From Gammaproteobacteria bacterium (GTDB lineage Bacteria > Pseudomonadota > Gammaproteobacteria > GCA-001735895), in NCBI GenBank assembly GCA_050298595.1, contig JBNKUM010000094.1, positions 189,539 to 253,538 of the forward strand: a DNA stretch of 64,000 nucleotides, written 5' to 3'. The translations under genes were made by a program, and so were the position numbers. Below, piece after piece: positions 3,826-41,353 of this stretch (position 1 is its first letter; every line of letters starts with the position of its first letter). The notes beneath the pieces were generated by a model. That model did no database searches, was not told the origin of the DNA, and saw only the letters and a program-made list of their open reading frames with translations.

Positions 3826-4454
3826 CAGGGTGGATTGCCTGATGATTTTGTTAAAAAAATTAGGAATTGATACATCAAAAACATATGTGGATTTGTCCTC
3901 TGCAAAAGATGTTTTAAATAGACATACCCATATAGAAGAGAGAACTTTCTCATTATCAAAAAAAGAAATATACCTTCTCTCAGAGTAATGCCTTCAGGCC
4001 TTTGAAACATACATTACAATAATTGATGAATGTAAAGAGAGGATTAGTAATAACATAATTGATGAAGTAGATAGACACCTTAATTAATAAAGTTGTTTCC
4101 GGTGGAGTTGATGAAATTGGAGAAATAGCTACCCATAGCTGGTTTGATGAAATCTTAATTGATTAGGTTGTCGTTGATAAAATATTGGCAAAAACAGTAC
4201 TGCTAACAGTATTCGGAAATATCGGAGTAGGACTACAGTATGGATCTAATTCGGATGTAAGAGATGATATTGGTTACGTTACTTCAGACTCTTTCCCGTA
4301 TAGAGCAAATGTTACTGTTGTAATGAAACGCCCATTAGGTTCGCATACTAAAGTAATATCTCTAAATGTAGATACAGATAGTTTTATGAATGAAAAATGT
4401 ACTAACAATCTGCTGCATAGGATACGCTCGCTCTTCTGTGAGTCGGGGCGTTAG
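3826..4454 (+). pseudogene. decayed gene with frameshifts and stops, resembling pPIWI-associating nuclease-like proteins
   Basis: Segments GGLPDDF, LNRHTHIEERTF, EIATHS and LQYGSNSD...DSFPY lie in different frames; family recalled, not searched. Confidence 0.4.
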
Positions 4455-20925: not shown

Positions 20926-21915
20926 ATGAAAACAAGAATATTGGGTAAGTCTGGTTATGTGGTATCTGAAATAGGCTTGGGTTGCTGGCAGCTCGGTAAT
21001 GACTTTGGCCCCGTGGAAGAGCAACAGGCTGCCGCAATACTGGACACGGCTGAGGACCAGCAGATTTGCTTCTGGGATACTGCCGATGTTTATGGTGCAG
21101 GTTTGAGTGAACGCCGTATTGGTCAATGGCTGGCCAGCTTGGGACCGAATGATAAGCGGCCACTGGTGGCTACCAAAGTCGGGCGGGATGCCGCTCTTTA
21201 TCCCGATGGATACACTAAAGCCAGGGTACGGACTAATTTACTTGGCTCGATTGATCGTTTGGGTGTGGAAGCGTTAGATCTGGTTCAGCTACATTGTGTA
21301 CCTACCGAGATATTGATGGCAGGCGATATGCTGGACTGGATGGAAGACTTTCAACAGGAAGGGTTGATCAAGGCTTTTGGAGCCAGTGTAGAGAAAATAG
21401 ATGAGGCTTTGTTCTGTGTTGAGCACCCTAAGCTGACCAGTTTGCAGATTCTATTTAATCTCTTTAGACAGGATGCTACCGAAGTTCTGTTGCCCAAAGC
21501 AGCAGAAAAAGAGGTAGGTGTTATTGTACGTTTGCCATTAGCCAGTGGCTTACTCAGTGGCAAGATGACCAAAGATCAGCAATTTGCAGCGGGAGATCAT
21601 CGCAACTATAACCGTGATGGTGCCGCTTTCCATGTGGGAGAGACCTTTAATGGTATTCCCTTTGAAAAGGGCGTGGAGTTGGTGCAAGAACTGAATAGCT
21701 TTGTTCCTCAGGACATGACGTTATTGCAAATGGCCTTGCGCTGGATATTGGATCAACCGCAGGTGAGCACGGTTATTGCCGGTGCTAGTAAAGCTTATCA
21801 GGTGGAAAGCAACGCCGCTGCTTCAGCACTTCCACCTTTATCTGACGTTCTGCATCAACAATTGCGGGCATTCTATTACGACAAAGTAAGAGACCAGATT
21901 CGGGGAGGGCTCTAA
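20926..21915 (+). CDS. aldo/keto reductase (copy 1)
   Basis: GLGCW, DTADVYG and ATK motifs; paralog at 36449. Confidence 0.93.
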   Translation: MKTRILGKSGYVVSEIGLGCWQLGNDFGPVEEQQAAAILDTAEDQQICFWDTADVYGAGLSERRIGQWLASLGPNDKRPLVATKVGRDAALYPDGYTKARVRTNLLGSIDRLGVEALDLVQLHCVPTEILMAGDMLDWMEDFQQEGLIKAFGASVEKIDEALFCVEHPKLTSLQILFNLFRQDATEVLLPKAAEKEVGVIVRLPLASGLLSGKMTKDQQFAAGDHRNYNRDGAAFHVGETFNGIPFEKGVELVQELNSFVPQDMTLLQMALRWILDQPQVSTVIAGASKAYQVESNAAASALPPLSDVLHQQLRAFYYDKVRDQIRGGL

Positions 21916-24526: not shown

Positions 24527-25207
24527 ATGCCAAGACAAGCCAGAACCGTATTTGCAGGTGTTCCTCACCACATCACCCAAAGAGGTAATCGTCGAGAGGA
24601 CATATTCTATGCTGACGAAGATAGAGAAGTTTATCTGGGCTGGTTGCAGGATTATTGTCAGATACACAAAGTCGAGATTCTGGCTTATTGCCTGATGACT
24701 AACCACATTTACTTATTCGTCCTGCCTAAGAAAGAGGCTGGATTATAATTAGTACTCAAACCGCTGCATATGCGATATGCACAGCGATTTAATCGTCAAC
24801 GTGGATGGAAAGGACATGTTTGGCAGGGGCGTTATTTTTCATCAGCACTGGACGAGCATTATCTGAGGGCCGCGATTCGCTATGTCGAAAGAAATCATGT
24901 CAGGACAAAAATGGTGATAAAAGCAGAAAACTATACCTGGTCAAGTGCAGCCGCGCATTGTAAAGGGTATACAGACACGGTATTGACTATAAAGGTTTAC
25001 TGGAAGAAACAATTCGAATCTATTGGCAATTGGTCCGCCTGGTTAGCGGAAGGTGATCCTGTTGATGATCTATTGATCATTCGACATAATATTGAAAAGG
25101 GATTGCCCTGTGGTTCTAATCGATTTATTCAGAAACTGGAAAAACAAATTAGAAGGGTATTACAGTATCGACCACTTGGTAAACCAAGAAAGCTGGACGA
25201 AGATTGA
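24527..25207 (+). pseudogene. full-length RAYT transposase with one in-frame stop (TAA 24746-24748)
   Basis: PHHITQRGNRRE, YCLMTNH, GHVWQGRY and IRYVERN in one frame; flanked by inverted GGGGACGCTAC (24484) / GTAGCGACCCC (25214). Confidence 0.88.
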
Positions 25208-29901: not shown

Positions 29902-30029
29902 GGGTTTACTAAACCGGGTCGAGAATAATGTAGGTCAGATACAAATATATAAATATTGCGTGTACAAGACTCCAGTTATGTAGGTGAAAAATGCATGTTG
30001 ATGAGGGGCACCCATTAAGGGGCAGGGGG

Positions 30030-30635
30030 TCAGGTTGAACCAGCGGCTATGACCCTGGATATCTGCATCATTTTATCCTTTTCTTTTTGATCCAGATTTG
30101 AGTAGATCATCAAAATCTCCTGAAGATCATCTGGAAAGTAGGCGCATAGGCCATCTAGCTCCACATGCTGTTCATCCATCCAGTTGCGGGATTTTTTTAG
30201 CTGCTTTTCGATTTTACGACATAATTTATCCTGAAGTTTCAGGAAGGGATTATCCAGGTGTTGCTTGAATTCTGAAGGTTTCAGCCCGGTAGTTTTTCTA
30301 AGTGCCGTGACTTCTGTTTTATTTAAAGATTTTACCAGTTGGCTCAGGTTCTGATGACGAATAGCCTGAAGATCGCGCTCACCAGACCCTATGCTACCTA
30401 AACCAAACTGAATCCAGCAGGGATTAATTTTAGTGACTTCGGCTATCTTCAATATGTCCTGAGAGGCGGGCATAGAGATGCCCTGCTCATAGTTACCCAA
30501 TCGGCTGACACTCCATTCAGGAGTCGCCTGTATAAATGCTGCGCGCGTCTTAAACCCCGCCATTTGCCGGGCCTGTTTAATTCGTGCACCGACCTGTTTT
30601 CTAAAATCATCAGTAGTAGTATTTTTTTTGGTCAT
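30030..30635 (-). CDS. XRE-family repressor with two HTH-like domains and no peptidase domain
   Basis: GARIKQAR...RLGNYEQG...WIQFG; second phage-repressor-like unit IRHQNL...RKIEKQL..NWMD. Confidence 0.8.
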   Translation of the reverse strand: MTKKNTTTDDFRKQVGARIKQARQMAGFKTRAAFIQATPEWSVSRLGNYEQGISMPASQDILKIAEVTKINPCWIQFGLGSIGSGERDLQAIRHQNLSQLVKSLNKTEVTALRKTTGLKPSEFKQHLDNPFLKLQDKLCRKIEKQLKKSRNWMDEQHVELDGLCAYFPDDLQEILMIYSNLDQKEKDKMMQISRVIAAGST

Positions 30636-30643
30636 AATAAATA

Positions 30644-30693
30644 ACAAGAATCTTGTAATTAGTGGTTGACAGCTTGTAATGCTTCATTATACT
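30644..30693 (+). promoter_or_regulatory. sigma70 promoter with adjacent and overlapping operator-like sites
   Basis: TTGACA(30666)-16 nt-TATACT(30688); palindrome ACAAG-AAT-CTTGT at 30644-30656; CTTGTAAT at 30652 and 30673. Confidence 0.7.
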
Positions 30694-30729
30694 ACGCAGC
30701 AATTCTTAATTCTGATTAATTTTAAAGGT

Positions 30730-30846
30730 ATGCATCATTTATTCATTTCAACGCAGAAGCAACTCAGTATCAGCCCCCAGGCTGTGCCTATGTGTGAGTG
30801 GATATGTATATCTTTTGATAATGAGTATAAGACAGTAGATTTTTGA
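30730..30846 (+). CDS. putative leader peptide 1 (38 aa, MHHLFISTQK...EYKTVDF)
   Basis: Short ORF just after the promoter, ending 11 nt before an attenuator hairpin. Confidence 0.5.
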   Translation: MHHLFISTQKQLSISPQAVPMCEWICISFDNEYKTVDF

Positions 30847-30857
30847 CTTTCTATTTT

Positions 30858-30927
30858 GGAAGGTCAATGGCACCTTCCGAGCAAAAATTAAAAACCCGGT
30901 TTGTGCTAAACAAGTCCGGGTTTTTTT
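30858..30927 (+). terminator. attenuator 1: protector hairpin plus intrinsic terminator with alternative antiterminator
   Basis: GGAAGGT/ACCTTCC hairpin; CCCGG...CCGGG-T7; GCACCTTCCG can pair with CGGTTTGTGC. Confidence 0.75.
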
Positions 30928-31297
30928 ATGCCGGGAGAAAGGGAAACCAGAGATACTACATAATTGACAAGGGGTGCTCTAGTTATTCACAACTAGAGGA
31001 ATATGAAATGTCTGTAAAAAACAAGACTATAGATAGAGAGCTCTATGGTTGTGTTAAAAGAAAATATATAGGGCCATGGTCAACATATTGGTTAGTGTTA
31101 ACAGACCCTGGGTCAAGCTAGATATGACACGGCCAGGAAGAAGGGAAAATAAATGTTGCTGTATTGCAGTAACGAAGGGGAAGGATCCAGATGGTCTGGT
31201 ATTCCCTTTGGGTAATCACCGACCCCATGAATATTACTGGTGAGTGACTGGCGTAATAAGCTATTGAATAAATTTAGGAGCAAAGTTTTTAGTGAAC

Positions 31298-31468
31298 ATG
31301 TTATCGATAAATAGAGCTGTCTGGCCGGTGATTTATGTATCGCCAACAGCCCAGTTGCGCCCTGAGTTTATGGGCAAGCAGCTCTGTATATCCGCTCTGT
31401 ATATAAGCAATGCGCCCAGGAACCTGGAACAGAATCATTTTGATTCAAAGGGTATTGGTAAAACGTAA
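31298..31468 (+). CDS. putative leader peptide 2 (56 aa, MLSINRAVWP...KGIGKT)
   Basis: AGGAG at 31276, in-frame GTG at 31292 and ATG at 31298; ends 17 nt before attenuator 2. Confidence 0.5.
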   Translation: MLSINRAVWPVIYVSPTAQLRPEFMGKQLCISALYISNAPRNLEQNHFDSKGIGKT

Positions 31469-31485
31469 TTCTCCATGAAAGTCCT

Positions 31486-31567
31486 TCGGAGGGTTGCAGT
31501 AATAACAAGCACCTCCGAGAGTTTAAAAAACCCCGGTTGTGCTTGAGAAGGCACCCGGGGTTTTTTT
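31486..31567 (+). terminator. attenuator 2 (same architecture as attenuator 1)
   Basis: TCGGAGG/CCTCCGA hairpin; CCCCGG...CCGGGG-T7; AAGCACCTCCG can pair with CGGTTGTGCTT. Confidence 0.78.
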
Positions 31568-31575
31568 ATGCCCCC

Positions 31576-31610
31576 ACACCGGCGTTCCCGGTGTTAATGA
31601 TCTTTGACAA
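31576..31610 (+). promoter_or_regulatory. rrn-type boxB-boxA antitermination signal
   Basis: Hairpin ACACCGG-CGTTC-CCGGTGT, then TGATCTTTGACAA (E. coli boxA is TGCTCTTTAACAA). Confidence 0.7.
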
Positions 31611-31731
31611 TTTGGAATCACGCAATGCCACCGGGAAACCGGTGGCCGGGCGAAACACTGAAGTAATCAGTCAGTTGTTTTGTCGCGGACATTTGTCTGC
31701 GATATGTCGAACCCATCGACCGCCCACAACT

Positions 31732-31806
31732 GCAGATATAGCTCAATGGGTAGAGCGACGGCTTTCCTGGCCGAGGACCCCAGTTCGATTCCGGGTATCT
31801 GCTCCA
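31732..31806 (+). tRNA. tRNA-Gly(TCC), atypical (U37, stem mismatches)
   Basis: Cloverleaf GCAGATA/TATCTGC, TTCGATT loop, U73, CCA. Confidence 0.8.
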
Positions 31807-32742
31807 GATTCGCCTGCTTGCAGGCAAATGCCTGGCATTCTTGTCCCGAGATGCCGGTGCAGCGACACATCGGGTTCCCATGATGGATAAGCCGGACATC
31901 CAGTGTAGTCGGCAGTGTCATCAGACCGCGTGAGGTCTTTACGATAATTGATGGCGACATCGAAAAAGGGGGAATGCCTGCATACCCTCGCCGGGGCAAC
32001 TCGGTCGATTTACGCAAGCCCAGTCCTCTACGTCTTCGGGTCGCTCGGAGATACTGATAAAGGGATGCATGGTAATTAAGGATGCCGGGCGGCTAAAACC
32101 GTGGTATTCGAATGTTTTCGTGACTGTTAACGCCATGGGTCAACATCTCGTTTCAGGAGGGATGAAGGGTGCACTTTTAGTCCGAGCCGTCAGGTTAGGG
32201 CGTTAGTGAAGTTTGAAGGGTGAGGGCAGTGGCCCAGATCCTGAAAAACGGTCAAGTAGCGGGATACGTGAAAGACATGGGGTGTGTGGCATTTTTGTCC
32301 TCAAAAGGGACTGGAACCACCGGAGTACGCACATCCTGGCAGGTTGTTGAAATAGCTCAACTGGTAGAGCAATTACCTCTTAAGTAATGGGTTTCAGGTT
32401 CAATTCCTGATTTCAAGGCAAACAGAAAATGGAAAGACGTACTCCAGCGTTAAGTGAAAGTGACCTAAGTCTCGGCAGCTTGCTGAACCGAGAAGGGTTT
32501 GAGGCCCCAAGCCAATAACCCGGGTACCGAATCGCATCAATGGGCCGGACAGCTCAGAGAGTAGATGAAGTGCCGAGTAGCTTAGCGGTATGTAGGTATT
32601 GCCACCTACTCAAACAAGGCGGTTACGAAGGTTTACCATGATGCCAAGAAAGGGGGCATGGTGGATAAGCTGGGAAACAGCGGGTGGAACCGACTGATAA
32701 TCCAGTGAAAGGATCTTCATAGAGGCTGTAATCTCAGGCCTT
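31807..32742 (+). ncRNA. large structured RNA, GOLLD-like, with embedded tRNA; boundaries approximate
   Basis: ~930 nt without a credible ORF; dense helices and GNRA loops (GGGCAACTC, GCTGGGAAACAGC); 3' end GGCTGTAATCTCAGGCC; tRNA-array context. Confidence 0.7.
32346..32418 (+). tRNA. tRNA-Lys(CTT), embedded, G1:G72 mismatch, no CCA
   Basis: Full D, anticodon and T arms; loop CTCTTAA. Confidence 0.8.
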
Positions 32743-32747
32743 ATTCT

Positions 32748-32823
32748 TCCCTGATGGCGTAAATGGTGAACGTAGCTGACTGTTAATCAGAAGTTTCGGG
32801 TTCGAATCCTGATCGGGGAGCCA
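32748..32823 (+). tRNA. tRNA-Asn(GTT)
   Basis: Cloverleaf, G73, CCA. Confidence 0.88.
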
Positions 32824-32829
32824 GATATT

Positions 32830-32913
32830 GGTTGTACTGAGCATTGGTGGGCTCACCTGGCTGTAACCCAGACTCCTCTGGACGTGATGGTTCGACTCCA
32901 TCTGCAACCACCA
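32830..32913 (+). tRNA. tRNA-Tyr(GTA)
   Basis: Cloverleaf with long variable region, C8, CCA. Confidence 0.85.
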
Positions 32914-33027
32914 GACAAAAAAATCATGAGAGCAAACTGCAGACACTCTCGATATCGATTGATAAAAGCGGCGTTGGCCGTGAATTATCCCCTGGCTAAT
33001 TCCTGAAACGGCGAGGGTTAGATTTAT

Positions 33028-33104
33028 GCGTCCGTAGTATAACTGGATATTACACCGGACTTTTAATCCGGCTAATGCGAGTTCAACTCTTGCCGGACGT
33101 ACCA
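33028..33104 (+). tRNA. tRNA-Lys(TTT)
   Basis: Cloverleaf, CCA. Confidence 0.88.
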
Positions 33105-33110
33105 TTTTAT

Positions 33111-33185
33111 TGCTCTGTAGCTCAATGGTAGAGCCCCCGGCTGATAACCGGAAGGTAGTGGGGTCAGTACCCACCAGAGCAACCA
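33111..33185 (+). tRNA. tRNA-Ile(GAT), non-canonical T-loop GTCAGTA
   Basis: Cloverleaf, CCA. Confidence 0.82.
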
Positions 33186-33260
33186 GTTTGTTATGTTCCC
33201 AGGCTCTGGACAAACGATATTCCTGCGAGCCAGGCTGCCCGACAATCGGGCTCAAATTAC

Positions 33261-33335
33261 ACTCCCGTGGATTAATGGTGAGATCGACAGACTTTCAATC
33301 TGTAGGTGAGGGTTCAATTCCCTTCGGGAGTACCA
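33261..33335 (+). tRNA. tRNA-Glu(TTC)
   Basis: Cloverleaf, CCA. Confidence 0.88.
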
Positions 33336-33340
33336 GATAT

Positions 33341-33414
33341 GGGGTCATAGTTAAGTTTGGGCGAGTGCCTGTTTTACAAGTTGATTATTGCCAGTTCGAT
33401 TCTGGCTGGCTCTA
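33341..33414 (+). pseudogene. degenerate tRNA, Ala-like acceptor (G3:U70) with TAC in the loop
   Basis: T arm and acceptor intact; D and anticodon stems broken; no CCA. Confidence 0.65.
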
Positions 33415-33553
33415 CTGAATGTGCCTACCTTGTTAGCTACAGGAAGGTCATCACACCACAGTCAGCACAGAGGGGGGCTGAATAGCAGCGAGGCTGCAAA
33501 ACGGTGCGGTAAAAGTCCGAAGTTTCGTAACACAACAGTAACGGAGGTATCCA

Positions 33554-33724
33554 ATGAATCACTATCGTAAATTTGAACGTGCAGTTCAGGATATGAATAT
33601 CCCGAAAAACCGCAAGACTGCCAACCCAGCTAATGCGAGTTGGTTCTTAAGGTCAGGAGTAGCCTACAACCGTGATCACGACAAGATCATGACGGCGATA
33701 TTCCATGCGCGCAATATTTCTTAA
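33554..33724 (+). CDS. small basic protein (56 aa, MNHYRKFERAVQDMNIP...WFLRSG...HARNIS)
   Basis: GGAGG RBS at 33543; fills the gap between two tRNAs; absent from the ORF track (<60 aa). Confidence 0.65.
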   Translation: MNHYRKFERAVQDMNIPKNRKTANPANASWFLRSGVAYNRDHDKIMTAIFHARNIS

Positions 33725-33728
33725 CAAT

Positions 33729-33806
33729 GGTGGGTATAGCTCAGTGGGTAAGAGCGCCGGGTTGTGACCTCGGAGGTCATCGGTTCAAGTCCGATTATTC
33801 ACCCCA
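33729..33806 (+). tRNA. tRNA-His(GTG)
   Basis: Cloverleaf, G-1:C73, CCA. Confidence 0.92.
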
Positions 33807-33872
33807 AACAAGGACTGCTTTAACTTCCCCCAGGGATTGGTGGATACAGACCCGGAGTTAAAGCACCAATTT

Positions 33873-33949
33873 ATCCTGATGGCCAAATTGAATAAGGCAG
33901 CGGTTTATGAAACTGGAGAATGCAGGTTTGACTCCTGCTCGGGATACCA
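33873..33949 (+). pseudogene. degenerate tRNA with ATG anticodon, probably ex-Arg(ACG)
   Basis: Acceptor, T stem and CCA retained; TTTGACT T-loop; mismatched anticodon stem. Confidence 0.6.
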
Positions 33950-33958
33950 AATCATTCT

Positions 33959-34035
33959 GCCGGGGTGATGGAATTGGCATACATGCTTGTCTTAGAAACA
34001 AGATTTTGCGGGTTCAAATCCCGCCCCCGGTACCA
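33959..34035 (+). tRNA. tRNA-Leu(TAG), short variable loop
   Basis: Cloverleaf, Leu-type D arm, A73, CCA. Confidence 0.88.
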
Positions 34036-34041
34036 GTTCAA

Positions 34042-34118
34042 TAGCGATTAACTCAGCTGGTTAGAGTGCCAACCTTACCAGTTGGATGTCGTGTGTTCGA
34101 ATCACACATCGCTAACCA
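34042..34118 (+). tRNA. tRNA-Val(TAC), C37
   Basis: Cloverleaf, CCA. Confidence 0.88.
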
Positions 34119-34119
34119 C

Positions 34120-34196
34120 GGCAAAGTGGCTGAAATGAAAATGGCGCAAACCTCATAAGATTGAAAATGCCGATTTAATCCCGGCCTTTGCCTCCA
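34120..34196 (+). pseudogene. degenerate tRNA-Met-like (CAT)
   Basis: Perfect acceptor and CCA; D-loop GG and T-loop degraded. Confidence 0.6.
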
Positions 34197-34202
34197 ATAT
34201 TT

Positions 34203-34277
34203 AGCGAGATAGACCTAATGTTAGAGCACCGGGTTCATTTCCCCGAAGACCCGGTTTAGATTCAAAATTTCGCTCCC
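34203..34277 (+). pseudogene. degenerate initiator-like tRNA (CAT)
   Basis: AGCGAGA/TTTCGCT acceptor; GGG/CCC anticodon stem; T stem destroyed. Confidence 0.55.
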
Positions 34278-34283
34278 GATTAT

Positions 34284-34361
34284 CTGGGTGTAGCTCAGTC
34301 TGGTCAGAGTTCTTGCCTTGGAAGCAAGATGCCGTTGGTTCGAATCCAACCACCCAGACCA
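34284..34361 (+). tRNA. tRNA-Pro(TGG)
   Basis: Cloverleaf, C1:G72, CCA. Confidence 0.92.
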
Positions 34362-34366
34362 AATAT

Positions 34367-34441
34367 GCGGATGTAGCTCAACGGTAGAGCATTGCCCTGT
34401 CAAGGCAGAGGTCGTGGGGTCAGTACCCATCATTCGCGCCA
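34367..34441 (+). tRNA. tRNA-Asp(GTC), non-canonical T-loop GTCAGTA
   Basis: Cloverleaf, G73, CCA. Confidence 0.85.
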
Positions 34442-34464
34442 GATTCTACGAAAGGAAAAGTCCA

Positions 34465-34590
34465 GTGAAACAAAGAAACCCTGTGCCCGTTAACAGGCCC
34501 TGGAAGGAAAGTGTTTATGAAAATAGTAGCAAGGCCAAACGTCAACAATCAAAGATGGCGTTTCAAAAAAGATTATGTGGACGTGGCTGA
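34465..34590 (+). CDS. small Lys/Arg-rich ORF (41 aa, MKQRNPV...) whose stop lies inside tRNA-Cys
   Basis: AAAGGA RBS at 34451, GTG start. Confidence 0.4.
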   Translation: MKQRNPVPVNRPWKESVYENSSKAKRQQSKMAFQKRLCGRG

Positions 34591-34652
34591 ATGATTATAG
34601 CGCCTGGTTGCAACCCAGGATTTTGCAGGTTTGATTCCTGTCGTCCACTCCA
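34577..34652 (+). tRNA. tRNA-Cys(GCA)
   Basis: Cloverleaf, U73, CCA; T-loop TTTGATT. Confidence 0.82.
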
Positions 34653-34701
34653 AATGTTAGGGCCTGCTAAGTCGTACAACCTTTTACGTTAATTTTTAAA
34701 T

Positions 34702-34775
34702 AGTCCTGTGGTGTAGCGGTAACACTCTTGTCTTTGACACAAGCATCGGTAGTTCGAATCTACCCGGGGCTGCCA
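34702..34775 (+). tRNA. tRNA-Gln(TTG)
   Basis: Cloverleaf, G73, CCA. Confidence 0.9.
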
Positions 34776-34797
34776 GATATTATCAGTTTGTCATACT

Positions 34798-34872
34798 GGG
34801 CCGTTAGCATATTGGTAGATGCAAACCCCTCATAAGGGTTTGAAGAAAGTTCGATTCTTTCACGGCCTACCA
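34798..34872 (+). tRNA. tRNA with CAT anticodon (Ile2-like or Met)
   Basis: Cloverleaf, GGGCC acceptor start, CCA. Confidence 0.85.
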
Positions 34873-34961
34873 CATAGCTTGTATCTCCCTGCGTATCAAT
34901 AGGGTCAGAGTGAATGAAGCTTACTTAAAACTTGATGCACTGTCATTGCATTTCAATTTCT

Positions 34962-35038
34962 ACCCCTGTAGCTTAATCGAATAGAGCACCTGGCTTCGAA
35001 CCAGGCGGTTGGGAGTTTGAGTCTCTCCAGGGGTGCCA
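34962..35038 (+). tRNA. tRNA-Arg(TCG)
   Basis: Cloverleaf, CCA; T-loop TTTGAGT. Confidence 0.82.
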
Positions 35039-35044
35039 ATAATT

Positions 35045-35120
35045 GTAGCGATAATTCAATTGGCAGAATGCCGGTCTCCAAAACCGGACGTTGGGGGTTC
35101 GAGGCCCTCTCGCTACGCCA
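35045..35120 (+). tRNA. tRNA-Trp(CCA)
   Basis: Cloverleaf, G73, CCA. Confidence 0.88.
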
Positions 35121-35179
35121 TGCATGTGATTCCAAATGGTCTTCTATTTTTTAACATGGACAAGATCTGGAGGTTAACT

Positions 35180-35752
35180 ATGGTCACATCCATTCTACAA
35201 CTGGATATTGCAGGAAACCCTGCAGGCTGGATCAATCATCGGCAAGCCATCTTGTTGGTGGCCTCAGATCGTGTGGTAGCCGGTCTGGGTGACCATGATT
35301 TTATATTTCAGGGTGGGGTAAACCGGGTTACCCGGTCACGATCATGCGTGATTGTCAGCTCCATTTTGCTGACTCGTGAGAGAGTAGTTGGGAATCGGTG
35401 GCAACATAACTTTGAAGCCCCGTTGACCAATAAAGGGCTGTTTGCTCGGGACCGGTATATGTGCCTGTACTGTGGACAAAGCCACGTTCCATCACAACTG
35501 ACAATGGATCATGTGATGCCGAAATCTCGAGGAGGTGCAGATACCTGGGTAAATGCAGCGACAGCCTGTCGCAAGTGTAATCATGCCAAAGGTAATCGAA
35601 CCCCGGAAGAATGGGGGCACCATCTGTTGGCGGTGCCATTTGCACCGAACTGGGCTGAATACCTGTACCTGAAAAACACGCGACGCATCATTGCGGATCA
35701 AATGGCTTTTTTAAAAAGTCGATTTCGTAAGGACAGTCCGCTGCTGGTCTGA
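35180..35752 (+). CDS. HNH endonuclease (McrA-like)
   Basis: RDRYMCLYCG...TMDHVMPKSRGG..W.N...C..CN..K; GGAGG RBS at 35169. Confidence 0.92.
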   Translation: MVTSILQLDIAGNPAGWINHRQAILLVASDRVVAGLGDHDFIFQGGVNRVTRSRSCVIVSSILLTRERVVGNRWQHNFEAPLTNKGLFARDRYMCLYCGQSHVPSQLTMDHVMPKSRGGADTWVNAATACRKCNHAKGNRTPEEWGHHLLAVPFAPNWAEYLYLKNTRRIIADQMAFLKSRFRKDSPLLV

Positions 35753-35904
35753 AGAGACAGGTCGGTAATTTTGGTAAAACCGACTCGGTCCAAAACCGGG
35801 TCGGGCGCAGGTAAGCATTTGATTTTATGGCTTTATTAGCTATTTAAATATACAAAGCTGACCTTAAAGGGGCAATTTAACGAACTTTGTAGGGCCAGCA
35901 GGTT

Positions 35905-36132
35905 CTAGTAAATACCACGCATCCGTATAAGCTTCAGGATCAGCACCACAAAGGGTGAACCGTGCATCAGCAGGTCAAAGATATCGAGCGGCTTCACCAG
36001 TGTTCCTGCTGAAAGCATCTTCAGCTTTTCCCATATGTGAGGCTCAGGAACAAAGGGTGCTAGCCCCAATAAGAGACAGGCAATCACTATCATCTGTAAC
36101 GAAATATTATCTAACCAGGACCTAACTTTCAT
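35905..36132 (-). CDS. small conserved membrane protein (GLAPFxPEPH family)
   Basis: LGLAPFVPEPHIWEKL...DIFDLLMHG. Confidence 0.75.
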   Translation of the reverse strand: MKVRSWLDNISLQMIVIACLLLGLAPFVPEPHIWEKLKMLSAGTLVKPLDIFDLLMHGSPFVVLILKLIRMRGIY

Positions 36133-36448
36133 AAAGTTCTCTAATTGTATATCCAAACATCTGTGATCATACTGCTACGCTGAAAGCATCTTAGGGTATA
36201 GTAATTTGCCTTGCAGTTACACAGGCTAAAAATTAGAACTGATCGAGGTACCCTTGACTAAGTGCTATTCTATTGTATCTCTGGAATTCCGTAATTTCCT
36301 TCTCAATAGATGGATGTCCTCGTTTACTTGCGTTTACTTTTTTTGGTAGCTTATAGCATAGTGAGAATATCTCAGTTAAAGTGATTCGGGTAATCTGCTA
36401 TGGTTTCCTGCTTGGAAAATTAATGCCTCAAAGTATTTAGAGAAAAAT

Positions 36449-37438
36449 ATGAAAACAAGAATATTAGGTAAGTCTGGTTATGTGGTATCTGAAATAGGTC
36501 TGGGTTGCTGGCAGCTCGGTAATGATTTTGGCCCAGTAGAAGAACAACAGGCTGTCGCAGTACTGGACACGGCTAAGACCCAGGAGATTAGTTTCTGGGA
36601 TACCGCCGATGTTTATGGTGCGGGTCTGAGCGAACGCCGTATTGGTCAATGGCTGGCCAGGTTAGGACCGAATGATAAACGCCCACTGGTGGCTACCAAA
36701 GTCGGGCGGGATGCCGCTCTTTATCCTGATGGATACACTAAAGACAAGGTGCGGACTAATTTGCTTGGCTCGATTGATCGTTTGGGTGTGGAAGCGTTAG
36801 ATCTGGTACAGCTACATTGTGTACCGACCGAGATATTGATGGCAGGCGATATGCTGGCCTGGATGGAGGACTTTCAACAGGAAGGGTTAATCAAGGCTTT
36901 TGGAGCCAGTGTGGAGAAAATAGAAGAGGCTTTGTTCTGTATTGAGCACCCTAAGATGACCAGCTTGCAGATTCTATTTAATCTCTTTAGGCAAGATGCT
37001 ACCGAAGTACTACTGCCCAAAGCAGCAGAAAAAGAGGTAGGTATTATTGTACGCTTGCCATTAGCCAGTGGCTTACTCAGTGGCAAGATGACCAAAGATC
37101 AGCAATTTGCGGAGGGAGATCACCGCAACTATAACCGTGATGGTGCCGCTTTCCATGTGGGTGAGACCTTCAATGGTATTCCCTTTGAAAAGGGCGTGGA
37201 GTTGGTGCAAGAACTGAATAGCTTTGTTCCTCAGGAAATGACGTTACTACAAATGGCCTTGCGCTGGATATTGGATCAACCGCAGGTGAGCACGATTATT
37301 GCTGGTTCTAGTAAAGCTCATCAGGTGGAAAGTAATGCCGCTGCTTCAGCGCTACCACCCTTACCTGACGCTCTGCATCAACAATTACGGGCCTTCTATT
37401 ACGACAAAGTAAGAGACCAGATTCGAGGAGGGATCTAA
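36449..37438 (+). CDS. aldo/keto reductase (copy 2)
   Basis: Near-identical 329-aa paralog of 20926-21915. Confidence 0.93.
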   Translation: MKTRILGKSGYVVSEIGLGCWQLGNDFGPVEEQQAVAVLDTAKTQEISFWDTADVYGAGLSERRIGQWLARLGPNDKRPLVATKVGRDAALYPDGYTKDKVRTNLLGSIDRLGVEALDLVQLHCVPTEILMAGDMLAWMEDFQQEGLIKAFGASVEKIEEALFCIEHPKMTSLQILFNLFRQDATEVLLPKAAEKEVGIIVRLPLASGLLSGKMTKDQQFAEGDHRNYNRDGAAFHVGETFNGIPFEKGVELVQELNSFVPQEMTLLQMALRWILDQPQVSTIIAGSSKAHQVESNAAASALPPLPDALHQQLRAFYYDKVRDQIRGGI

Positions 37439-37492
37439 GAGCTAATGGGGTTAGATTAAATTATATTTAACGTGTTCTTTGACACCAGTTAT

Positions 37493-40310: not shown

Positions 40311-40745
40311 ATGAAAACATCTCAAAGCGGTTTCACTCTTATCGAGCTGGTCGTGGTTATTGTTTTGCTGGGTATTCTTGGGGTTACTGCACTGGGGAAG
40401 TATCAGGATTTATCTGGAAGCGCAAGAAAAGCCGCCTTATCAGGAATTGCTTCAGAAATATCAGGTGCTTCAAAAATAAATTTTGCCAAAGGCTATGCGA
40501 GCGGTAATTACACTGTAGATCTTAAAGCTAGTGATGTTTGCACGGTAAGTATTTTAAAAAAATTACTCCAAACTGGAGAATTTCCTACCGCTTCCCCAGC
40601 CTATGCTGTGAATGGATTAGGTGATTGCTCAGGTGGGGCAGGGACAACAACAAGTTGTATCATATATCAGGATACTGACACAACGACTGGAGGATATAAC
40701 GCAGATGATGCCCAAGCAGTTGCCACTCTGATATGTGGTGGGTAA
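40311..40745 (+). CDS. type IV pilin, MSHA-like (1)
   Basis: QSG|FTLIEL prepilin motif; C-terminal Cys residues. Confidence 0.9.
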   Translation: MKTSQSGFTLIELVVVIVLLGILGVTALGKYQDLSGSARKAALSGIASEISGASKINFAKGYASGNYTVDLKASDVCTVSILKKLLQTGEFPTASPAYAVNGLGDCSGGAGTTTSCIIYQDTDTTTGGYNADDAQAVATLICGG

Positions 40746-40858: not shown

Positions 40859-41353
40859 ATGAAAAAATCTCAAAGCGGTTTCACTCTTATCGAGTTGGTC
40901 GTAGTTATTGTTTTGCTAGGTATTCTTGGGGTTACTGCAATGGGGAGATTTCAGGACTTGTCTGGTAATGCAGAGCAGGGGGCCCTTAATGGTATCGCGA
41001 CTGAAATAACCGGTGCCGCAACCCTCAATTATACATCCAGCCTTTTATCTTCAAATCCTGGTGACTTTGCTTTAGATATAGGTGATACAACAAATGGTAA
41101 TGGTGTCGCCACAATGAGCACATCTGCTACAGCAACTGCTTGTACTGCAGCAGGGCTTGCTAGTTTACTTAACGGGGGGGCTTTACCTAAAGTTGGAGCA
41201 GGCACAGCGGTTACTGCAACAGCTTTTATAGCAGGTACTACCACTGAAATTACAGATGCCAATTTATGTGCCGCACCAGGTGATACCTTTAGTTGCCAAA
41301 TTACAGGTGGTGCTTCAGCAAAGGCATTAGTCACTTTAATCTGTACTGAATAA
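40859..41353 (+). CDS. type IV pilin, MSHA-like (2)
   Basis: QSG|FTLIEL prepilin motif. Confidence 0.9.
   Translation: MKKSQSGFTLIELVVVIVLLGILGVTAMGRFQDLSGNAEQGALNGIATEITGAATLNYTSSLLSSNPGDFALDIGDTTNGNGVATMSTSATATACTAAGLASLLNGGALPKVGAGTAVTATAFIAGTTTEITDANLCAAPGDTFSCQITGGASAKALVTLICTE

Follow-up and report, generated by a model that had tools for sequence, protein, structure and literature searches.

How a long array of spare transfer RNA (tRNA) genes, a large structured RNA and an HNH nuclease gene come to stand behind one divergent repressor and one densely built control region, and what such a unit does, is the question raised by a locus at 30030-35752 of a 64,000-nucleotide (nt) stretch of gammaproteobacterial DNA (contig JBNKUM010000094.1, positions 189,539 to 253,538), hereafter the window. 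A preliminary description, made from the letters alone, had read it as an inducible translation-rescue system. The locus is a real unit, consisting of repressor, promoter, attenuators, a boxA-like site, tRNA array, GOLLD RNA and HNH gene. The promoter, the two attenuators, the boxB/boxA region, the structured RNA of ~0.9 kb and the HNH gene were each present where that description had placed them, and chance is excluded because of the Rfam scores and the conservation in related genomes. We consider it probable, at roughly 60%, that this is a portable, truncated representative of an operon family of Gammaproteobacteria in which spare tRNAs and RNA repair are placed under layered control.

The repressor gene is on the minus strand and the array on the plus strand, the divergent arrangement that had been claimed. 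The predicted protein has an N-terminal helix-turn-helix (HTH) and a conserved C-terminal domain of ~115 amino acids (aa) without known family. Pfam gave weak matches to HTH_31/HTH_3, the PHROG matches are to the repressor families phrog_2967 and phrog_4, and a relative in the PDB is 7t8i, an Xre-family regulator. Homologues numbered 255 at E <=1e-3, mostly ~42-54% identical, and many of the named ones are from Gammaproteobacteria, including the sulfur oxidisers Thiodiazotropha, Sedimenticola and Thiolapillus. Related loci were collected by a profile scan with one genome per species, which yielded 80 loci, three of them from sister genomes. Of the 71 loci with at least 1.5 kb of upstream sequence, 51 have a tRNA gene on the opposite strand no more than 1.5 kb away, and the HNH gene was found at 21 of all 80; the synteny of repressor, array and HNH gene predicted for other genomes was therefore recovered. 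Where at least 3 kb of upstream sequence was available (60 loci), 17 loci have arrays of 5 to 33 tRNAs, 30 have 1-4 and 13 have none. An HNH homologue (38-97% identity) is present at 16 of the 17 array loci. Genes for an SPFH/Band-7 protein and/or the RNA ligase RtcB occur on the array strand at 45 of the 60, often accompanied by the gene of a conserved protein of 315 aa that belongs to no known family. Complete loci (L047, L054, L056, L098) contain repressor, leader, tRNAs, HNH, SPFH, the 315-aa protein and RtcB. In a quick version of the repressor tree, arrays fall into at least four separate clades, intermixed with loci of few tRNAs; array size therefore changes within a stable frame.

The repressor family was detected in 6 of 399 other genomes making up an even sample of the class, and its single-tRNA form is carried by cultured Thiocystis, Thiorhodococcus and Imhoffiella, with SPFH and RtcB genes in Thiocystis violacea and Thiorhodococcus. 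In genome G174, which belongs to a separate family, an array of 25 tRNAs with GOLLD is followed by HNH, SPFH and RtcB genes; it has the same kind of leader and is preceded by a distant XRE homologue. The megaplasmid arrays of the cultured strain Methylibium petroleiphilum PM1 (plasmid RPME01, L018) and of Burkholderia (pM7012, L020) contain 27 and 37 tRNAs, respectively, and an HNH homologue comes after each array. On RPME01 a terminator and then an exact boxA stand just before the first tRNA (~4050-4160), and on pM7012 a terminator and a boxA with two mismatches precede the first tRNA (~4180-4345), with a divergent HTH gene. When the repressor itself was compared with 72,556 plasmids by tblastn, no match was obtained, and a plasmid origin of the repressor was set aside on this result. 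A paralogue of its C-terminal domain only, at C119:11450-11785 of genome G000 (37% identity, internal TAA stop), is probably a gene fragment.

The leader, 1.1 kb between the repressor gene and the first tRNA in the window, was examined in 54 loci, including the window and its three sisters, and compared with shuffled leaders. The motif CAAG-N3-CTTG or TGCAA-N8-12-TTGCA occurs at the promoter in 47 of the 54, against 0.18 in shuffles. A terminator, defined as a hairpin of <= -12 kcal/mol followed by at least five T, was found in 53, and in 49 of these 53 it is preceded, at a distance of 30-90 nt, by the end of an open reading frame (ORF) of 30 codons or more, against 30% of shuffles. The boxA sequence TGCTCTTTAACAA, which we take to be the rrn consensus, is exact in 11 leaders, within one mismatch in 17 and within two in 26 (shuffles: 0, 0.06 and 0.5), and it lies a few tens of nt 3' of the terminator in each of the 23 leaders inspected. 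The three control layers proposed at the outset (repressor, attenuation, antitermination) thus have counterparts in cis-elements that the family conserves. An ordinary supernumerary tRNA operon, in which the regulator is unrelated and the hairpins are terminators of upstream small genes, would agree with the lack of family matches for the leader ORFs and with a simple scan, in which promoter-like and terminator-like motifs were no commoner in the region than in shuffles. With operator, terminator and boxA counts so far above shuffles, and with the repressor-tRNA synteny described above, such an operon is highly improbable. The simple terminator scan of the region detected neither attenuator.

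Leader ORFs in the family have 30-60 codons, and alignment of 22 leaders revealed a common plan. Many of the leader ORFs end in GGTATGACCTGA (Gly-Met-Thr-stop), and after the ORF come three segments that can form two alternative hairpins, GGAAGG pairing with either CCTTCC copy. These are followed by the terminator, a variable hairpin, and boxA with TTTGGAA after it. RNAalifold recovers the hairpin of segments 2 and 3 and the base of the terminator stem, and the alternative hairpins 1:2 and 2:3 are conserved in family leaders. Attenuator 1 of the window has the same GGAAGG/CCTTCC design, which recurs in related leaders: segment 1, GACTTTC, overlaps the stop codon, and segment 2, GGAAGGTC, can pair with segment 1 or with segment 3, GCACCTTCC. 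The predicted folding energy is -31.7 kcal/mol (z -3.9) for 30840-30932 and -41.3 kcal/mol (z -4.5) for 31462-31572; both terminators have a run of seven T. As in a leader-peptide attenuator, a short ORF ends just 5' of each intrinsic terminator (at 30846 and 31468). The position and C-terminus of leader ORF 2 resemble those of leader ORFs at other loci, which end in LGMT, LGMS or AAVT. A second ORF running from an ATG before segment 3 through the terminator was considered and dropped, the ATG being missing in many loci. The 79-aa ORF between the attenuators matches no family in Pfam or NCBIfam; of the loci retrieved, only those of this genus have it, and it is 81% identical to that of sister genome G010.

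At the start of the leader, the operator was compared with the rest of the genome. There are eight genome matches to CAAGAANCTTG, and a visible TTGACA / TATACT promoter in the next 70 nt was found only at the window operator. The transcription start is predicted near 30700. The -10 region TTATACTACG (30687-30696) agrees at 7 of 8 bases with the TrcR site published for Anabaena, ATACTACA; the folds of the two repressors differ, and this likeness was treated as a probable coincidence. At L045, L058, L062, L068 and other Thiodiazotropha-type loci, the repressor ATG abuts the operator (CAT then TTGCAA...) in the first 30 nt of the leader, and the repressor mRNA may therefore be leaderless. The lambda cI mRNA transcribed from PRM is leaderless. 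At the other end of the leader, the boxA-like TGATCTTTGACAA of the window agrees with the presumed rrn consensus at 11 of 13 positions; the host's own rrn boxA is absent from the assembly.

The array itself stood up to analysis, and the number of its genes was corrected. In place of the 21 tRNA-like genes first counted, ARAGORN called 18 tRNA genes, all on the plus strand between 31732 and 35120, and Rfam added two weaker tRNA-like matches (33341-33414, 33 bits; 34120-34193, 40 bits), giving 20. With 18-20 co-oriented, closely spaced, supernumerary genes in 3.4 kb, it is a long tRNA array as defined in PMC8421152. The order in the main block is Asn, Tyr, Lys(TTT), Ile, Glu, His(GTG), His(ATG), Leu, Val, Pro, Asp, Cys, Gln, Met, Arg(TCG), Trp. 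CCA is encoded in 17 of the 18 tRNAs, including all 16 of the main block; the exception is the tRNA within GOLLD. The genome has 57 tRNA genes, 39 of them housekeeping and 18 in the array, and the array adds Arg(TCG) and the odd His(ATG). Array tRNAs are 54-75% identical to housekeeping tRNAs of the same anticodon, a divergence that suggests a foreign origin.

Some of the tRNA genes have peculiarities of their own. The tRNA-His at 33873-33949 has the unusual anticodon ATG, the weak tRNA-like gene at 33341-33414 may have the anticodon TTA, and 'tRNA-Stop' genes were called by ARAGORN in the leaders of L049, L058 and L068 (anticodon TTA shown for L049). Such array and leader tRNAs are possible suppressor-type tRNAs. 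In G010 (locus L014), the tRNA-Ile(GAT) at the place equivalent to 33160 of the window is split by an insert of 158 nt that is bounded by terminal inverted repeats and resembles a miniature transposable element, and ARAGORN no longer calls this tRNA. The 56-aa ORF inside the array has no PHROG or NCBIfam match.

The structured RNA was identified as GOLLD. Its core matches all of RF02032 (model positions 1-416 of 416) with 166.7 bits (cut-off 150; E 5e-45). A tRNA-Lys(CTT) is embedded in it, and tRNA-Gly and tRNA-Asn lie on either side. To the class belong RNAs of at least ~800 nt with a variable 5' domain and a tRNA adjacent or inside, and RNA contigs of 817-1057 nt agree with this. These contigs come from metatranscriptomes, four runs from four studies, which were picked because they share words with the window and whose contigs show neither strand nor level. 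In all four runs there are contigs that match the window at ~98% identity and are nearly confined to GOLLD. They extend over 31834-32715 (884 nt), 31836-32652 (817 nt) and 31878-32913 (1057 nt), and in the fourth run 31951-32711 was covered at a depth of ~110 against <=10 elsewhere, with adapter sequence at 31951 and 32743. RNA of GOLLD length and of the window type accumulates in nature. One contig spans the end of the second terminator, boxA and tRNA-Gly (31553-31814), a weak hint of co-transcription. Parts of the window without contig cover (the repressor, most of the HNH gene) are uninformative on expression. Very high depth at 34996-35186 was rejected as array expression, as it stems from short pieces of tRNA-Trp from other organisms. 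Sub-threshold Rfam matches to His_leader, ncr1015 and YrlA were treated as chance.

GOLLD is carried by a small part of the family. At the gathering score it was found at 2 of 10 related array loci (L032, L036), at none of nine few-tRNA loci and at none of five plasmid or phage loci. In an even sample of the class Gammaproteobacteria it was present in 1 of 150 other genomes, that one being G174. A relaxed search (E up to 1) found no GOLLD at L045; the Thiodiazotropha loci thus have a conserved RNA-like leader that is not detectable as GOLLD.

The HNH gene follows the last tRNA and has a good ribosome-binding site. Its catalytic and zinc-binding residues (D-H...N and two CxxC pairs) are invariant in 18 of 18 aligned sequences, and the nearest solved relative is the small HNH endonuclease 4h9d (E 7.5e-17). 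Both GOLLD and the HNH protein bring phages to mind. The locus might be a module derived from a phage, or directed against defence: a remnant of a temperate or jumbo phage, whose tRNAs serve as nuclease-resistant substitutes or as decoys for anticodon nucleases. GOLLD is described as an RNA of prophages and phages that frequently lies close to tRNA islands (bioRxiv 10.1101/2024.12.08.627333; PMC5737381). The best phage matches of the HNH protein are in jumbo phages, with 44% identity in Salicola phage SCTP-2, where nine tRNAs surround the copy, and the repressor matches phage-repressor families in PHROG. The surroundings point the other way. In the ORFs scanned with Pfam between 19.6 and 50.5 kb, and in the three sister flanks, no integrase, terminase, capsid or tail gene was found, as had been noted earlier for integrase and structural genes near the locus; nor were att repeats found. 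Pfam and PHROG scans of the neighbours gave no phage genes, and a decayed prophage fragment was set aside. Further, no plasmid in the collection matched the repressor, and many of the named homologues, as well as the loci, are gammaproteobacterial, several of them on contigs of 0.2-7.9 Mb. A phage module is accordingly rather improbable as an account of the locus; the decoy idea is compatible with the operon reading and not opposed to it.

The ORFs around the locus (19.6-50.5 kb) encode, by Pfam, FdhD, cytochromes, an exosortase, a VIT/VWA protein, aldo/keto reductases, pilin-like proteins, an alpha-2-macroglobulin and a penicillin-binding protein, and mobile elements are represented by one weak match, to an IS200-like piece (24770-25207). 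When 40 related genomes were searched at the DNA level, 3 of the 13 others that belong to the genus proved to contain the block, with 90-97% identity, and contig ends truncate two of these three sister copies. The segment shared with G010 by blastn measures 7.4 kb (30027-37441). At the left border, similarity begins in all four genomes exactly at the repressor stop codon (30027), and the four left neighbours are a gene for a VIT/VWA protein, a solute-binding protein, a glycosyltransferase and a patatin-like protein; at the right border in G010, it ends after an aldo/keto reductase, at 37441. No repeats, integrase or insertion sequence (IS) were found at the borders of the block, and the flanks in the three sister genomes are without phage genes in Pfam. 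Identity to G010 is mostly 97-100% for tRNAs, GOLLD (97.6-100%) and attenuator 2, with tRNA-Val at 93.5% and tRNA-Asp at 96%. It is ~95% for protein genes and mostly 90-96% for spacers, two of which reach 98.5-99%. RNA genes and control structures have thus changed less than most spacers and less than the protein genes.

Table 1. Features of the locus, with positions in the window, strand and the basis of each assignment.
Feature	Position	Strand	Basis
Predicted XRE-family HTH repressor, 201 aa from ATG	30030-30635	-	Pfam, PHROG, homologues; listed ORF reaches TTG at 30647
Operator palindrome CAAGAATCTTG, perfect, just 5' of -35	30645-30655		Sequence; family leaders
Sigma-70-type promoter TTGACA-16-TATACT	30666-30693	+	11/12 consensus positions; -35/-10 pair kept in related leaders
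Second CTTGTAAT, promoter spacer	30673-30680		Sequence
Leader ORF 1, 38 aa from first ATG 3' of promoter	30730-30846	+	Translation; kept in G010, G001, G011
Attenuator 1 (hairpins and intrinsic terminator with T-run)	30845-30928	+	Fold; terminator 30890-30927
79-aa ORF remnant between attenuators	31008-31243	+	Frameshifted in window and G001; intact in G010, G011
Leader ORF 2, 58 aa, C-terminus GIGKT-stop	31292-31468	+	Open in all four genomes of the genus
Attenuator 2: hairpin 31486-31518, intrinsic terminator 31525-31566	31469-31567	+	Fold; 99% identical in G010
boxB-like hairpin 31577-31593, boxA-like TGATCTTTGACAA 31598-31610, GAAA-loop hairpin 31628-31645	31577-31645	+	Sequence, fold
tRNA-Gly(TCC), first array gene	31732-31806	+	ARAGORN; Rfam 56.5 bits
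GOLLD RNA, ~0.9 kb	31835-32743	+	Rfam core 32279-32740; RNA-library contigs
tRNA-Lys(CTT), inside GOLLD	32346-32419	+	ARAGORN; without encoded CCA
Main tRNA block, 16 ARAGORN tRNAs	32748-35120	+	ARAGORN, Rfam
Small ORF in array, 56 aa	33554-33724	+	ORF list; interval 33415-33729 (spacer and ORF) 99% identical in G010
HNH nuclease, 190 aa, intact CxxC...DH...N...CxxC	35180-35752	+	PF14279 3.9e-15, PF01844; phrog_16726
Aldo/keto reductase, right end of shared block	36449-37438	+	Pfam; blastn block limits

A block so portable could also be a selfish mobile cassette, in which array, GOLLD and HNH gene spread by HNH-assisted homing or recombination, control merely limits the cost, and the cell gains nothing. 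The distribution of the block, its four different left neighbours and its sharp borders agree with this, as do its identity, which is above that of nearby shared segments (85-93%), and the decay of the 79-aa ORF in two of four genomes. HNH homologues were present beside tRNA arrays on 4 of 4 plasmids and 1 of 2 phages inspected, and HNH genes of arrays are regarded as homing endonucleases in the published view (PMC8421152, PMC6582537). A selfish cassette would not readily explain that repressor, operator, leader ORF, terminator and boxA are kept over 40-55% protein divergence and joined to RtcB/SPFH at so many loci, or that tRNAs and GOLLD are more conserved than most spacers. Moreover, the HNH gene persists at loci with few or no tRNAs (L034, L046, L050, L052, L056), and the differing flanks offer no homology for homing. 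For the locus in general this explanation is unlikely; for the truncated, mobile copy in the window, a selfish and merely tolerated cassette is possible.

Two duplications in the surroundings were noted. Aldo/keto reductase genes at 20926-21915 and 36449-37438, 329 aa each and 87% identical over a 300-nt repeat, bracket 14.4 kb that contain cytochrome genes, the IS200-like fragment, the exosortase and VIT/VWA genes as well as the tRNA cassette, which the downstream reductase accompanies in G010. Tandem pilin-like genes at 40311-40745 and 40859-41353, with an N-terminal methylation motif, overlap a duplicated 229-nt segment (82% identical).

From the conserved parts and their order we infer repression by the XRE protein, ribosome-dependent attenuation, Nus dependence and the inducing signal, and the operon might then work as follows. 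The XRE repressor would bind the CAAGAATCTTG palindrome over the strong promoter and keep the unit low. Transcripts that are nevertheless started would meet one attenuator (two in this genus), where the leader-ORF stop abuts the alternative hairpins and the intrinsic terminator, and read-through would depend on the behaviour of the ribosome on the leader. Polymerases that pass would meet boxA and recruit Nus factors, with which several kb of untranslated structured RNA could be crossed. The products would be foreign-type tRNAs for 16 amino acids, the tRNA-bearing GOLLD and the HNH nuclease, and in most relatives the same transcript would run on into the SPFH and RtcB ligase genes. By these products, damaged tRNAs would be replaced, and in relatives also re-ligated, when translation is attacked. 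Since operons of the family usually carry an RNA-repair enzyme, they probably help recovery from damage to the translation machinery.

Several observations weigh against this scheme. In the window, boxA is off consensus at 2 of 13 positions, and no convincing antiterminator pairing was found in the leader, free segment 3 forming no more than 4-6 pairs with the arms of the terminator, G-U pairs among them. RtcB and SPFH are absent from the window cassette. The genome has its own rtcB genes, on contigs C85 and C69, and the C85 locus has no operator, boxA or nearby repressor homologue; C85 rtcB was therefore dropped as a member of the same control. The array has no tRNA for Ala, Phe, Ser or Thr and so falls short of a complete back-up set. 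Every run examined contained GOLLD RNA; this would agree with leaky or constitutive expression no less than with induction, and the unit is therefore not always silent. A selfish element, too, would agree with insertion in four different contexts in four species. As a separate observation, at C85:63150-65537 rtcB and the gene of the 315-aa partner adjoin, without SPFH.

The closest parallel is the trn L-array of Anabaena sp. PCC 7120, which, like that of the window, is a long co-oriented supernumerary array with an adjacent HNH gene, and which has a dedicated repressor with a site overlapping the promoter and is induced when translation is inhibited (PMC8421152; PMC10272220). According to PMC8421152, such arrays have spread horizontally, have an HNH neighbour and lie near rtcB in some cyanobacteria, and the Anabaena array and rtcB are induced together by chloramphenicol. 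The array is silenced by TrcR (All0854), a ribbon-helix-helix protein encoded elsewhere on the chromosome that also represses rtcB, a slipin gene and two HNH genes (PMC10272220). In contrast, the regulator of the window is of XRE type with an HTH and is divergent at the array; it is not a homologue of TrcR and is therefore a functional analogue only. The Anabaena genes form a scattered regulon, whereas those of the gammaproteobacterial relatives form one operon, the window being without rtcB. The operon therefore unites in one transcript several genes of the scattered regulon, under a non-homologous repressor. The linkage to SPFH and/or RtcB at 45 of 60 loci favours the translation-rescue reading. 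Inducible translation rescue, which we infer by analogy, is strengthened by the RtcB link and the Anabaena precedent.

Other known systems share single features with the locus. In Mycobacterium, a horizontally acquired array of more than 30 genes likewise has an expressed GOLLD with a tRNA or pseudo-tRNA inside, and HNH; it belongs to a different phylum, and the accessible text of PMC6582537 mentions no dedicated repressor, attenuator, boxA or RtcB linkage. Morgado et al. (2020, in RNA Biol) reportedly treat the Mycobacterium arrays as well. Another member of the GOLLD family forms a 14-mer nanocage by cryo-EM, and as in the window, tRNAs sometimes occur in the linker and the RNA within a tRNA island (bioRxiv 10.1101/2024.12.08.627333). 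Unlike prophage GOLLD, that of the window stands in a chromosomal, repressor-controlled gammaproteobacterial operon with no prophage around it. The Rtc operon of Salmonella and E. coli resembles the related loci in having RtcB, a dedicated regulator and a link to tRNA damage. It differs in its sigma-54 activator RtcR with a CARF-like domain and its partner RtcA, where the window family has an XRE repressor with an attenuator, SPFH, and tRNAs in the transcript (PMC7790460). The boxA of the window heads a long untranslated multi-gene RNA and has a hairpin before it, as rrn-type boxA does; unlike the latter, the family site follows a leader-peptide terminator and stands before tRNA arrays. Stringer et al. 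(2020, in eLife) reportedly described boxA/Nus antitermination ahead of CRISPR arrays. The use of boxA in arrays is also treated in PMC7862264.

The claim that the combination had not been described before was in part too wide. Arrays with HNH and GOLLD (PMC6582537), and a repressor-silenced array with HNH that is co-regulated with rtcB in Anabaena (PMC8421152), have been published. For the gammaproteobacterial operon, its XRE repressor and its leader with attenuator and boxA, no earlier description was found in the literature searched, and these are apparently new. The words 'Terminator', 'boxA', 'leader peptide' and GOLLD are absent from the main text of PMC8421152. No account of the gammaproteobacterial operon or of an XRE regulator of tRNA arrays or rtcB was found, and no leader-peptide terminator or boxA ahead of tRNA arrays was found described; supplementary array lists were outside the scope of the search. 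Taken together, the interpretation in the preliminary description is partly supported: its anatomy and its control layers appear to hold when related sequences are compared.

Long tRNA arrays, GOLLD RNA and their HNH neighbours recur in many places and are hard to explain. Regulator and inducing condition are known for a single array, that of Anabaena, and for GOLLD there is a structure and no function. The family described here wires spare tRNAs, HNH, SPFH and RtcB, with GOLLD in a few members, into one operon with a readable control region. This region is compact enough to be rebuilt in E. coli and bears on three puzzles: long tRNA arrays, GOLLD and array-linked HNH genes. A vague association is thereby turned into specific questions, namely which signal the attenuator reads, whether Nus is needed for transcription of tRNA arrays, whether the tRNAs and RtcB jointly counter tRNA-cleaving toxins or phages, and whether GOLLD takes part. 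As a tentative proposal, which we hold to be doubtful, the leader ORF and terminator could be a ribosome-based sensor of tRNA damage or stalled translation that gates a single 'replace and repair' operon. Foreign-type tRNAs would replace cleaved ones, RtcB and SPFH would re-ligate them, and the tRNA-holding GOLLD would act as a cage or scaffold. Such an operon would be widespread in sulfur-oxidising Gammaproteobacteria, with a simpler form on betaproteobacterial megaplasmids. If the proposal were true, it would provide the first physiological role for GOLLD and the array-linked HNH nuclease, as parts of an immunity to anticodon nucleases and ribosome-targeting toxins.

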